From NCBI GenBank assembly GCA_020137815.1, contig CM035359.1, positions 5,146,001 through 5,210,000 on the forward strand: a stretch of DNA of 64,000 bases, given 5' to 3'. Source of the stretch: Hormiphora californensis. Taxonomy: Eukaryota; Animalia; Ctenophora. Shown here in pieces: positions 47,701 to 53,700 of the stretch. Position numbers and translations under genes: made by a program. The notes under the pieces are model-generated. The model was not told the DNA's origin. It saw only the letters and a list, made by a program, of their open reading frames with translations, and searched no databases. Positions within the stretch are counted from its first letter, which is position 1; the number at the start of each line of letters is the position of its first letter.

Positions 47701-50700
47701 ATGTCCAGGCGAGGACTCATTTTGCCACTAATCCTCTATGTCTGCAGGTGAGGACTCATTTTGCCACTAATCCTCTATGTCTGCAGGTGAGGACTCATTT
47801 TGCAAGCATGTTGTGATCCATAGTGGTACCACGGCTGAAACAGTGGCAGCTAACACCGGACAAAATATCCAGCAGGTGATTATTTTAATTAGTTTAATGT
47901 TGAATATAACACGTTTTAATTAACACCACCTCACACCTGGTGTTTTTCTCTTGGAGGTGGTGTTTCTACGAGAGTACAATATTTCAATCCTTAAATAGCA
48001 CAATTCCCCCCCCCCCACCCCCGCCCTCCCTCTAATCTTTTATCCCCCGTTAGCCTGAATTGCAAGTTGAGGTTACGACCACTAAAGCGCTGATCAGCTC
48101 TGCCGGTCTAGAGAACAGCAACACCATGACCGTGCGGGTTGATAGTTTGTTCTCTCTCCCAGAGAATTGGCAACCATCCAATAACACGGTAGGAAATTGT
48201 TGGATTGTAAGATTCGAGGAACCTTTGGTATTGAGAGAATGAGAGAGAGGAAACTTTGTGACTCGCCCCGAGTCCCAACCCAGCTGGTACGAGGAAACTA
48301 GAGTTTGAGTAATATTTCAATATTTCATTATTTTAATGAAGTCCCGGATTTCAGACACATAACTACAACGCAGTTTTGTCCATGCCCCTGAGTGATACAG
48401 TGGATGCCAGTGTGACTGCTGGTATAGGAACTATCCGACCTGCTCCCGAGAAAAATATGGTGAGTAACTTGGAGAGAGCAGGGTGAGTTTGTTACTTTAA
48501 CTAGGAGAGAGCAAGGTGAGTTTGTTATTGTGACTAGGAGAGAGCAAGGTGAGAGAGATCACTTTGGCTAGAGGGAGAGCAAGGTATAAAGTTGATTACA
48601 CAGGAAAAGATCACGTTCCACTAACAGTGCTCTATCGGGAGCCCGAGAGCCGGAAACAAAGAGAAACAAGATTACTTCAAATTGAACAAATGTTTCGATG
48701 GCACTAACACCATCTCATCAGCAATCTGATGCGATGGTGTTAGTGCCATCGAAACATTTGTTCAATTTGAAATAACCTTGTTTCTCTTTGTATAAAGTTG
48801 ATTACTTTGACTAGAGGGAGAGCTGCGAGAGTTTTATACTTTGACTTTTTACTTTGGGTCCTAGGAGAGATATAAGAGCAGGGTGATGGGAAGAATAATA
48901 AGCCCCTTCCTCCTATCAGGATACATCAAGTCCCGCCAAGATTGTTCCCAGACGGTATGTCTCTGGTAATGGGCTAGCAGGAGCTGTTGTCAATATTCCC
49001 GGGTCCTCAGTTGAACCTTATCTTTATGAGGAAGAGGATGGGGATCTCAAGACAAAAGAGGTATAAATCATCTGAATAAGTTGACCAATCGGCCGTTTTT
49101 TGAGTTGCATTATAGCTCTGATACACAATGAATCATCAATTGGTTTGTTGTAACCCTTCGGCCTTCTTTTGCACCATGTACAATAAATCAGGAACCGACC
49201 GAATCAGGAAATACTGGTCCCTGATTGGCTGATAACCAGTCACGTGACCTAAATAACGAGTTCTGATTGGTTGTTTACTTGTTTCGGTCGGTTCCTGCAA
49301 TAAATCAACTGTGAGGATAGTGAAACTATTTTATCTCAGTACAGATCATAAGGAGATCAGCCTGATCTATACCTCCATACCTGATCTGGTCAACATCTAA
49401 TCCAGATAATTTGTTGTACATAAATGCAGCAGCGATGAAATGCTTTGTTGTTGAGTTTTTCGGCCTGAGCTCTATGATTATGTAGTTGATTAAGATTAGT
49501 TATATCAATGGGACAAAGAAAAATATACGATTTTATAAATGCAATATAAATTTCATAACATAGATCTAGTGAACAAATAACACACGATAATATAACAGTA
49601 CATACTAAAATTGTAGTCTCAACAGGGTCCTATCAAATATTAGTGTTTTTAGTATTCCGCTCAGTCCTAACATGAATTATACAGCCCGACCTCGCGATCT
49701 TCCCTTCTTCCATTGCTTTTTTACTTCAACATTCTCACCATATCCTTTCTTTTCCTGGTCAGCAAACAGGAAACCAGGTTTATCCTCAACTTTTAATTCC
49801 TCCACTTGCTGCACTCCGATGCTAATTTTTTTAATGGCCATGCATCCCACCGTTCGTACCTCTGTGTCCACTCTGTATTCACCTGATTTATCACCGCACT
49901 TCCTCAAAACTGTTACGTGCTTCCTCAGCTCCTTGCATTCTATAATTTCGGGAACTGAAATTGATGATGTTAAAAATATGCAGTTAACAATGTTAAAAAT
50001 ATGCAGTTAACAATGTTAAAATCATGAAAAACAAACAAAGAGTTCCTTCGGAGAATAACACGAGTCAGATTAATAAACAGTTGTGCTAAACGTGTCACAC
50101 ATACCAATTGATGCTCCACAGGACATATGATCTCTGAACGGGGGAAACAAATCTGAGTCGAATGTTGTACCATTCTCAAAGGGGCACACCTCTAGTCCTG
50201 TGGAATTTTGTTGTTTGTTATGTATATATATTTTATTTCAGTTGCCAACTGAAAAATTTAATAGGTAAATTCAAGATTTAGATGGCAATAAAAGTATAAA
50301 AAGTAATAAAGATTATATCGACTCCTTACCCTGGTTCTTTGGAGTTGATTCCCAATAATGGTCCCATTTGTCTTGGTATTTATCCAAAAGCTCTCCCATC
50401 TCCTTCGTAACGCCTTGAACAGTATACTGAAAAACAATCAGTTCAATAACTCCGTTAGTTTATTATCTCCCTCGTTTTTAATTTTCCATTCGAAGATGGT
50501 ATGATGAAAACTGCTATTTCCTATTTAGCACAAAAGTATTATAACGCGGAAAGCTAATTTTGTACCTGTGTTAGATCTGTCTTCATATTCTTCAGAGGGC
50601 CGGTACCAAAGTGAATCGTGTCTTTAGGGCACGTTGTTTTGTCTCTCTTATTTCGGGGTTCCACTGAAATGATAAAGAATTATAATAGACCATGTTACAC

Positions 50701-53700
50701 AAGTAAACAACCAATCAGAACTCGTTATTTAGGTCACGTGACTGGTTATCAGCCAATCAGGGACCAGTATTTCCTAATTCGGTCGGTTCCTGATTAATTA
50801 ATAGATCATTCTACACCATAACTTATTGTACGAGGGTGATTCTAAGTACCTAAGTATGTATAGGAAATAAACAGATATATCTGACCCTCTAACTTTCTAA
50901 TAAAACATTTTACCTGGAGAAGAATGAGAGAATACAGTGAGGCATGACAACAGCGTTACAAAAAGTACCAACATGATTTGTAGAAGTTGCACTTTAGAGA
51001 AGATACAAATTGCTCAAATGGTAGTTCTGAAATATTTGGACTGGTACCCGCGTCTTTTATAACCACAGGTTTGAGTAGCTGCTCTCTCGTCATTGGAGCC
51101 CTGAATTCCAATAATATGGGATGCCGGAAGACTTCCCTCTGTTTAGTTTTCTCGCTGAATGCTCCATTGAATATGTCGCCATTTACAATAGGAAATACTC
51201 AGATAACGTATTGTAAATCAGGGGGGGGGAGGTCATTGTCGGACTTATAGGGAGGGGTTACGTCGTCATTGATTTGGTATCCGTCATAATATGATGTAAT
51301 ATATGTAAGTATACAACAGATAGATCCGCATTATAAATACATCATTGGTTACTCGACCCTCTCTCACGTGGCGCTTTCCCAAATAATGCAAACAAGGGTT
51401 CGAACACACCATTGGGGATTATCATGTCTCAACTAGGGAGGACGGTCTTTTTGGAAGCACCTGGCCATGCAGTTGGAGATGGTTTTAATGCCCCTCACTG
51501 TTACAGAGGGCTTGTCTTGAACTGCACATGCAGTGGGGGGGGGGGGGTCATTGTCCTGGTGGGTATAACGGGGCCGGATTACTTCGTTTTGTTCGTTTAT
51601 TATGGTTGCTGCGTCTGTAGGATAGGGACCTGCCCTATAGTTATAGTAAAGGCCGCACCGAACACCCTTATTAAGCGTCCCACCACTCCGCCCGCCGCCG
51701 AAACAAGGCCACCCACCAATCGGTTTTTGCAGAGCATGTTACAAGCTACCAACTAACGTAGATGGCGTGTTTGGGACTCCCTAGGTTTAACTAGTAGTTA
51801 GCTTTTACAATAAAAAGGCGGTATCTTATCTGAAATAAAACAGAGAAAACAGCTTTGAGATAAATACAGCAATTAAAAAACAAAGCAGCAAAAAGCACAC
51901 AATTTAAAAGGGGTCAAAACGTATCCACCCCACTGAACGCGGTTGCTAATCTCTCAAAGTCATACCAATGCTCTGCTATACAGATCCCGTATTCTTCGTT
52001 GGTTTGAGAGAAGGGGGAGGAGTAGCGGCAGTAGTAGCAGGAGCAGGAGCAGTAGGGGGAGGGCGAGATAGATCATACATCTCCATTTCAAAAACTGGCA
52101 ACACCCGTTTCGTCTTAGCCCGGATGCAGTCGTATCCAGCCTTCCAAAAATAAGCTCCCATACTTCTCATCATACTGTAAACTTTGTCGCTGTACAACAC
52201 AGGATTTAACACCGAGTTGATGGGTAGGAGGATGACAGAAAATATGTCGTAGTACGATGTTGCATCAATCACCTCTGCCATGTGGAAGCAAGATGTGACC
52301 ATCATGGGTAGCCAGCACATCAAATCTGTCGCAATGATGAGGGTGACTTTTCTTTGGGTCTTCTGTTGTTGTTTGAGACGTTGCTTCATCGCTGGGTTGA
52401 CATGGTTTTCTCCGGCAGGTGCCGCTGCCATCAACCTCTGAACGCTCTGCCGTGTGTAGTAACCGATGACAACGTAGCAGAAACAAATCATAGCCAGACA
52501 GGAGATGTTCAGCACTTTGAAGGCAAGGACAAAGAAAAATTGGGGGTCATCGGGAAGTACAAAGTATTTAAATAAGCAAACCCCTTCATTTCCATAGAAA
52601 CCAACTAGATTGTTCAGTCCCTCCAAGTTACCATAATCTGATGTGTACATGCCACGAACTAAAGAAGTTATCTTGTCCCACCTCATTACCTCAATGTCCC
52701 TTTTGATCTTCAGAAAACGTCCGTAGTACCCCTCAAGAACCTCCAAGTGATCTTCTTTCCCCTGGACACCCACAAAGAACTTTAGCTGCTTACTCCAAGT
52801 TTGGCCGTTTATAAACATATCCTCCAGACGGCTGTTAACCTTGGTCAGGATTACGGGCAGGCTAGAAATCGCAACAGCGAACATGCCTAGAATGGGAGCC
52901 AGTTTGAAGGGGCCGCAGGGTAGGGTTTGAGTACAAAGGCTTCTACTGATCCCCACGGCCCGACTGATACTAAGAAAGGTCATGGAGTAAACGGAAATGC
53001 AACTTCCAAAAGTACTTAGAATGCCAAGTGCGTCACACGGCCATCCGGATAGCCATGTGGTTTGGTTGAGACAGTACTTGTCGCCCTTTACGAAGTCGGA
53101 GATAGTGATGAGAAGAAGGTAGACACCTGTCATGGCATCACCGACACAAACCATAGACACCAGGACATGGTTAGTGAGGGCAATATGGTTCATCTTCCCA
53201 ACTATGATGTCCTTCACATTGTGAAACAGTGTCCAGATGTTCAGGAATGTGGCGATGAGACCGAAAACTATGGCGATACCTTTAAGAAAGGGTGTCAGGA
53301 TCGCCTTGGAGCATTGCTCATTACATTCGTCAGAGTAGTCAGAGCAGTGAATTACACCATCACATTTCTTGTCCAGAGAGAGGTACTGTCCGGATGTGAG
53401 ACACTTGAAATGGTTGATACATCGTTTCTCGTCACTTCCATCGCCACAATCATCCACCAGGTTGCAGACTTTCTCGTACTCTAGACATCCGCCGTTATCA
53501 CACTCAAACAGCTCCTGGACAAAGTGCCCCTCTTTCTGTAGGACGAATGTAAGGGATGTCTCCTTGAAAAGTGTGTAAACTCGATTCTTGTATTGATCGG
53601 GGCACGAAGTTGTTTTGAGGGGTGTGTTTTGGAGGGGGCACCCCACTATTTTCCCACAACGACCACTGCACGCCAGATAGACATATTGCTCACCGTAGAA

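Follow-up and report, generated by a model that had tools for sequence, protein, structure and literature searches.

A Candidate IL-17-Type Ligand Gene Nested in CFAP70 of the Ctenophore Hormiphora californensis

The ctenophore Hormiphora californensis carries, on contig CM035359.1 of assembly GCA_020137815.1, a five-exon gene model for a protein of 208 amino acids (aa). The model lies on the minus strand of a stretch of 64,000 nucleotides (nt), forward-strand positions 5,146,001 to 5,210,000, which is here called the window and in whose coordinates all positions are given. With a probability of roughly two in three, this is a real five-exon gene that is nested antisense in CFAP70 (cilia- and flagella-associated protein 70) and encodes a secreted ligand of the interleukin-17 (IL-17) type, in the form termed T1C.

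Gene model and RNA evidence

The five-exon model is present in the sequence. The joined frame is 627 nt long and encodes 208 aa and a stop codon, with no internal stops. The model was first proposed in a preliminary description made from the DNA letters, and its coordinates, introns and open frame were all reproduced. Exon 1 (50914..50974) carries the ATG and a predicted signal peptide (aa 1-20). Exon 2 (50566..50663) carries the furin-type site RNKR (aa 24-27) and Cys32, and exon 3 (50330..50426) encodes an N-terminal linker or helix region (aa 54-85). Exon 4 (50105..50197) encodes the first half of the IL-17-like domain, with CPF and D-x3-FP-x7-C. Here Cys90 is knot Cys1, Cys112 is Cys2, N94 is a sequon, and Cys3 is absent. 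Exon 5 (49677..49954) encodes the second domain half, in which Cys123 is Cys4, followed by VLRK, the loop Cys136, and TVGC with Cys154 as Cys5 and no Cys6; a 52-aa tail with a basic end completes the protein. The 3' untranslated region (UTR; 49559..49676) is matched by contigs from two RNA libraries (X1 and X2). The only minus-strand open reading frame (ORF) of at least 100 aa at the gene is that of the last exon (49677-50006), in agreement with the preliminary description.

The four introns are 250, 139, 132, and 150 nt long, and all run from GT to AG. Intron 1 contains a dispersed 101-nt repeat (50699..50799); without it the intron measures 149 nt, near the size of the other three. Further near-full copies of the repeat, 95-98% alike, are located in the window at 49182-49282, 12807-12900, and 60339-60434. 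The repeat also turns up in RNA contigs with many different flanks and is likely a short non-autonomous element.

Splicing at the four junctions is predicted from sequence signals. It is very improbable that the model is wrong in part or describes a decaying copy, with a genic last exon and the other exons being chance GT-AG segments in a CFAP70 intron. Candidate sites abound (87 GT and 92 AG in 1.5 kb), and the exon-4 acceptor is weak, ranking 40 of 92 by the simple home-made consensus score used. The remaining seven of the eight sites nevertheless rank in the top 10: from exon 1 to exon 4 the donors rank 4, 10, 1, and 1 of 87, and from exon 2 to exon 5 the acceptors rank 1, 1, 40, and 4 of 92. 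A stronger AG 51 nt upstream of the exon-4 acceptor leads to an in-frame stop, and an alternative AG 6 nt downstream would make the protein merely two residues shorter. Exons and introns also differ in GC content (41-46% versus 24-34%), the introns without the repeat are of similar length (132-150 nt), and the chain opens with a hydrophobic leader and provides the first domain half in register. A strong TTTCAG acceptor lies at 51027 on the minus strand, 53 nt upstream of the ATG, and may be the end of a 5' UTR intron or a trans-splice site.

RNA evidence consists of contigs from three runs, two of which (X1 and X2) are marine libraries of different studies. A 151-nt contig of X2, an oligo-dT library, has a depth of 2 and matches 49574-49724 without differences; it is the sole record at 99% or above among 11 of that run across 19.9 kb. 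A 371-nt contig of X1 spans 49559-49940, starting 14 nt inside exon 5. It is assigned to a diverged allele or a related species because it carries 22 substitutions and 21 gap letters. The contig has two 6-nt deletions in the coding part, against UTR insertions and deletions of 1, 1, 1, 4, and 2 nt. Among the coding differences, the 14 that are listed introduce no stop and leave Cys136 and Cys154 unaltered, and Cys123 is too close to the contig end to judge. The contigs cover exon 5 and the 3' UTR and give moderate support, as such libraries can contain DNA. No contig in the three runs crosses any of the four junctions or lies over exons 1-4, a gap that proves nothing.

The protein has cysteines at positions 11 (within the signal peptide), 32, 90, 112, 123, 136, and 154; the six that follow the signal peptide are spaced by 57, 21, 10, 12, and 17 residues. 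The signal peptide and RNKR site of the preliminary description are both borne out. The hydrophobic N-terminus fits a signal peptide in a hydropathy scan (not a dedicated signal-peptide predictor), and cleavage after RNKR is predicted to leave a mature protein of ~181 aa and 20.6 kDa. There is one N-glycosylation sequon (N94). The tail has 7 Lys or Arg among its last 15 residues and a dibasic site at 158-159.

Likeness to IL-17 and Trunk

The disulfide bonds of IL-17 are numbered 1/4, 2/5, and 3/6, and the form without 3/6 is T1C, which belongs to the most prevalent IL-17 supertype (Chen et al. 2024, PMC11087794). The Hormiphora protein is assigned to T1C because, in the register of the motifs, Cys 1, 2, 4, and 5 are present and Cys 3 and 6 are absent. 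The absent residues are exactly one known disulfide pair, which upholds the earlier proposal that one bond was lost in concert. Judged from the sequence, the loss of 3/6 is a published, ordinary IL-17 pattern and no peculiarity. Cys5 is kept and Cys6 lost in 9 of the 40 readable invertebrate IL-17s (of 41) in the first of three parts of the dataset of Huang et al. 2015, the set used by eye for all invertebrate counts given here. Without the 3/6 bond there is no closed ring, so the domain would not be a true knot.

The preliminary description also likened Cys32 and the loop Cys136 to the interchain pair of IL-17A/F, a putative correspondence. The protein keeps four of the six knot cysteines, as vertebrate IL-17A/F (T2) does, together with spare cysteines that might join a dimer. 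In T2 the bond lost is 1/4, with 2/5 and 3/6 kept, whereas 1/4 and 2/5 are kept here (PMC11087794). IL-17A/F has two interchain disulfides (PMC4869123).

The three IL-17 motifs of Huang et al. 2015 (PMC4517768) fit in order at aa 93, 114, and 143, with 14 of all 40 specified positions matched and the anchors exactly spaced. A CPW/SPW motif at knot Cys1, with a variable third residue, defines IL-17s (PMC8353272), and the Hormiphora protein has CPF at 90-92. The Cys1-Cys2 spacing is 21, as in 3 of 4 invertebrate IL-17s counted (22 in the other), and the loop Cys lies 17 before Cys5, as in both of the two counted. Cys4-Cys5 is 30 and Cys4 to the loop Cys is 12, compared with 32 and 14 in both of the two counted.

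Invertebrate T1C proteins share with the Hormiphora protein a signal peptide, CP-aromatic at Cys1, D-x3-FP-x7-C, C-x8-VLR, the loop Cys, and Y-x4-E-x2-T-V-G-C, along with the retention of Cys 1/4 and 2/5 and the loss of 3/6. The length of 208 aa is within the range of the mussel IL-17 isoforms described in PMC8353272 (126-221 aa). One limpet IL-17 has, by eye, the same order of signal peptide, RxxR, and a Cys a few residues on. The Hormiphora protein differs from invertebrate IL-17s in lacking, by eye, an extra Cys two residues past Cys2 and in having the 52-aa tail with its basic end. Its gene has four introns, compared with 0-3 in 49 of 54 invertebrate IL-17 genes (PMC4517768).

Exon 5 was searched against 1.84 billion representative proteins, and two were returned. 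One of them (P0001), a repeat protein with no relation to the gene, was set aside. The other (P0002) is a 70-aa protein from one ENA contig that is 49% identical to exon 5 (E 1e-6). It retains the exon-5 trio of Cys and likewise lacks the last Cys of GCxC. Similarity to P0002 begins where exon 5 begins, and the residues that precede it would fit the end of an intron. Judged from the protein sequence, this suggests a common intron position in another species. Further scans yielded nothing more: none of 27 candidate longer homologues of exon 5 held up, a two-sequence profile recovered P0002 alone among 4 candidates of near length, a core profile found 0 of 115 among longer proteins, and of the 111 and the 401 pattern matches in JGI metagenome scans none was confirmed.

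Single exons were also scanned against the 24,736 families of Pfam at E <= 10, where the cut-off of IL17 (PF06083) is 24 bits. IL17 is the only family found for the exon-5 core (13.8 bits, E 0.08, profile 43-79 of 81) and the only one for P0002 (18.8 bits, E 0.0022, profile 39-78 of 81). The sole family is the expected one, and its scores are below the cut-off. The three ESM Atlas rows listed for exon 5 are Spaetzle/IL17, IL17, and NGF/Spaetzle clusters (0.76-0.77), which serve as a lead only. Exon 5 and its profiles found chance rows only among PDB sequences, and NCBIfam gave no match.

Structure prediction was run on the exon-5 half. With two sequences, AlphaFold gives a helix and a hairpin (predicted local distance difference test (pLDDT) 64, predicted template modeling score (pTM) 0.44), and a 46-aa single-sequence model reaches a pLDDT of 43, too low for use. 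The model of the half has no Foldseek match at E <= 0.001. Compared with 48,161 chains, its best Z is 4.0, and the top 50 include no cystine-knot proteins. The helix and hairpin differ from the long hairpin expected, and a half domain modeled from two sequences is no test of the fold.

Several results weigh against an IL-17-type ligand. Both Pfam scores are under 24 bits and come from the second domain half alone, and no Pfam family is found for exon 4 alone or for exon 5 with its tail included. The motif score is modest, as 14 of 40 is equalled by 39 of 5000 shuffles (~0.8%; mean 10.9). A looser anchor test was matched by 0 of 200,000 shuffles, with anchors that were picked after the sequence was seen. 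The Atlas scores are in a range often reached by shuffled proteins. The spacing of VLR and VGC is common to IL-17 and Trunk, and the stretch before Cys90 resembles, by eye, the N-terminal region of Mnemiopsis and amphioxus Trunk. AlphaFold places a helix at residues 6-22 of the exon-5 half where a strand is expected, a result of little weight because the half domain lacks its partner strands. Purifying selection appears weak: the X1 contig has 9 amino-acid-changing and 5 silent coding differences over ~205 and 56 sites, a ratio of ~0.5 from small counts and 17 of 22 differences listed. SEFIR domains are reported in Mnemiopsis and Bolinopsis and not found in Hormiphora (2 of 3 ctenophores; PMC11797021), and some members of the phylum may accordingly lack a canonical IL-17 receptor.

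Part of this evidence bears on a closely related family. Trunk/PTTH/Noggin-like proteins are the secreted sister group of IL-17, and Trunk and PTTH activate the FN3 receptor kinase Torso (PMC9071555). A Trunk-like peptide of Mnemiopsis leidyi (ML093034a) is already published (de Oliveira et al. 2019, PMC6660194). It is rather unlikely that the Hormiphora gene is a ctenophore paralogue of that peptide, or a stem member that predates the split of IL-17 and Trunk, with an IL-17 look that arose from a shortened second finger. Its signaling would then run through a Torso-like kinase and serve development or neuro-endocrine control. Trunk is the closest relative of IL-17 and binds double-FN3 kinases (PMC11087794), a Trunk-like peptide is known from a ctenophore, and the top Atlas row is the mixed Spaetzle/IL17 cluster. 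The resemblance before Cys1 consists, by eye, of a basic-Asn-Gly stretch and an upstream Leu-rich segment.

ML093034a and the Hormiphora protein are alike in being secreted ctenophore members of the same superfamily with FP-x7-C, C-x8-VL-basic, and the VGC spacing. ML093034a differs in having six knot Cys with spacings, by eye, of 22 (Cys1-Cys2) and 43 (Cys4-Cys5), and in lacking the loop Cys, the CP-aromatic, and the tail. Because knot Cys, finger length, loop Cys, and tail differ, the Hormiphora gene is not a simple orthologue of ML093034a. Trunk and PTTH are recognized by a six-Cys knot and a second finger of ~43 residues; the Hormiphora protein has four knot Cys and 30 residues. In the sequences compared, Trunk/PTTH/Noggin-like proteins likewise have an intact knot and a second finger of greater length, and no Noggin clip region is recognized by eye in the Hormiphora protein. 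The CP-aromatic, the Cys1-Cys2 spacing of 21, the finger of 30 rather than 43, and the loop Cys 17 before Cys5 are features of IL-17 and not of the Mnemiopsis peptide, and the Pfam match is to IL17 only. By its spacings and loop Cys, which follow IL-17s and not the Mnemiopsis peptide, the domain looks like the IL-17 type more than the Trunk type.

An improbable explanation is that the gene encodes a secreted protein or peptide precursor peculiar to ctenophores, with another fold and a chance resemblance to IL-17. Its basic sites (24-27, 158, 185, 195, and 199) would be cut to give shorter products. Lineage-specific precursors are numerous in ctenophores (bioRxiv 10.1101/2021.03.31.437758), and the single homologue among 1.84 billion representatives, the Pfam scores below threshold, and the helix and hairpin of the half-domain model are all compatible with it. 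A chance likeness does not readily explain why two ~49%-identical sequences both match IL17 and no other Pfam family, in the same part of the profile, why three motifs occur in order over two exons, or why the missing Cys are exactly one known pair (PMC11087794). The IL-17-like assignment of the preliminary description is supported by the sole Pfam family, at scores below the cut-off, and by the ordered motifs; the fold is a proposal.

CFAP70 host and neighboring genes

The host is a multi-exon CFAP70 gene on the plus strand (44709-64000) that contains several antisense intronic genes. A plus-strand exon at 44905-45084 matches CFAP70 aa 22-80 (E 7.6e-7), and another that starts at 56133 matches aa 266-313 (E 4.6e-6). 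The IL-17-like gene is considered nested because it lies antisense between these two exons. It is hosted by a CFAP70 stretch (49061..56132, plus strand; limits inferred) that is probably one intron and also hosts a receptor gene. The 5' flanking exon (48920-49060) has an open frame with AG/GT ends and no PDB match. Nested genes are common in Hormiphora, with 2357 reported in 1654 hosts (PMC8527503). A plus-strand gene that ends near 49400, with the RNA contigs as its 3' UTR, was considered and excluded, as CFAP70 resumes at 56133 and the contigs are not a plus-strand 3' end.

The second gene in this stretch, 1 kb away on the upstream side, is a neighbor only. It is a minus-strand ORF of 1061 codons from stop to stop (51976-55161) that encodes a receptor with LDL-receptor-class-A (LDLa) and rhodopsin-type seven-transmembrane domains (an LDLa G-protein-coupled receptor, LDLa-GPCR). 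An exon near 55100-55240 is likely its signal-peptide exon. Of its three nearest ESM Atlas clusters (0.96-0.97), two are commonest in Ctenophora and the third in Chordata.

Another CFAP70 intron hosts, in antisense, a small and probably secreted gene made of two minus-strand ORFs (57479-58278) with a weak F5/8 type C match (E 0.0094). A spliced-leader-like sequence (57114..57136, plus strand) is identical over 23 of 23 nt to part of the Hormiphora leader (PMC8527503); this 23-nt match occurs once in the window and 0 times in 100 shuffles. Together with the clusters of the LDLa-GPCR, it makes a ctenophore host very likely from the sequence itself. The genomic copy extends over 57114-57145 and carries a 34-nt contig of RNA run X3 at a depth of 2225. 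In a CFAP70 intron, an 11-nt tandem repeat forms a long array (61290-63700).

Elsewhere in the window, minus-strand exons at ~29460-36170 encode a membrane protein with an immunoglobulin (Ig) domain and several FN3 repeats (fn3 E 1.3e-5). Its layout is Robo/DCC-like by eye, and its tail may reach ~11400. This gene was considered as a receptor and is not put forward as one because no kinase or TIR tail is visible by eye in minus-strand frames of at least 35 aa. ORFs that resemble the reverse transcriptase and endonuclease of long interspersed nuclear elements are found by eye at 435-9992, 25226-26059, 38436-40642, and 42481-43053, the largest having 1013 codons (4516-7557). A tblastn search found no paralogue of the IL-17-like gene within the 64-kb window.

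Proposed function and significance

The secretion, cleavage, fold, disulfides, dimer, receptor, and biological role that we infer for the IL-17-type protein are as follows. The signal peptide would direct it to the secretory pathway, where a furin-type protease would cut after RNKR. Residues 88-156 would form the two beta-hairpins of cystine-knot cytokines, tied by Cys90-Cys123 and Cys112-Cys154. Cys32 and Cys136 would be left as a further pair, with a bond inside one chain or between the two chains of a dimer. Matrix or cell-surface sugars may retain the protein by its basic tail and limit its diffusion, or the tail may be clipped at 158-159. The protein would most likely act as a short-range paracrine signal through a double-FN3 receptor, either a Torso-like kinase or an FN3 protein with TIR2 or SEFIR. 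IL-17s signal as dimers by way of FN3-FN3-SEFIR receptors and CIKS. A double-FN3 ectodomain is common to IL-17 receptors and Torso (PMC11087794), and ctenophores have candidate receptor parts in the SEFIR domains of Mnemiopsis and Bolinopsis and in an FN3 and TIR2 gene that is up-regulated upon a second exposure to Vibrio (PMC11797021). That the gene encodes a true ctenophore IL-17 ligand, distinct from the Trunk-like gene and signaling via an FN3 and TIR2/SEFIR receptor, is a tentative possibility.

All parts of the IL-17 pathway are described as first appearing in cnidarians, derived from Trunk-Torso after the sponge split (PMC11087794); ctenophores are absent from the main text of that study and from its sequence table. 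Saco et al. 2021 name Cnidaria as the oldest phylum with IL-17, and the available text of their paper mentions one unverified Pfam sponge entry and no ctenophores (PMC8353272). For ctenophores, the accessible part of a later paper cites the Trunk-like protein alone (PMC9004410). No report of a ctenophore IL-17 ligand was found in the literature searched, a scope that did not extend to subscription papers and automatic proteome annotations, the latter of which may already flag such a domain. The preliminary description regarded the protein as an unusually early-branching member of the IL-17/PTTH/Trunk group. That claim is narrowed by the Trunk-like ligand already known from a ctenophore (PMC6660194), and an IL-17-type ligand is likely new there. 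What is new is likely the presence of an IL-17-type rather than a Trunk-type ligand in a ctenophore, the T1C variant and the ctenophore Trunk-like ligand being known.

An IL-17-like ctenophore ligand separate from the Trunk-like gene would push the split of these ligands deeper. If it is a true IL-17 ligand, the IL-17/Trunk duplication, and perhaps the shuffle of receptor domains, would predate the ctenophore split and not fall just before the cnidarians. If ctenophores also branch first, IL-17 would be a cytokine of the last common animal ancestor. The gene would provide a named candidate ligand for the FN3-TIR2/SEFIR proteins of ctenophores, and cytokine signaling in comb jellies would become testable.

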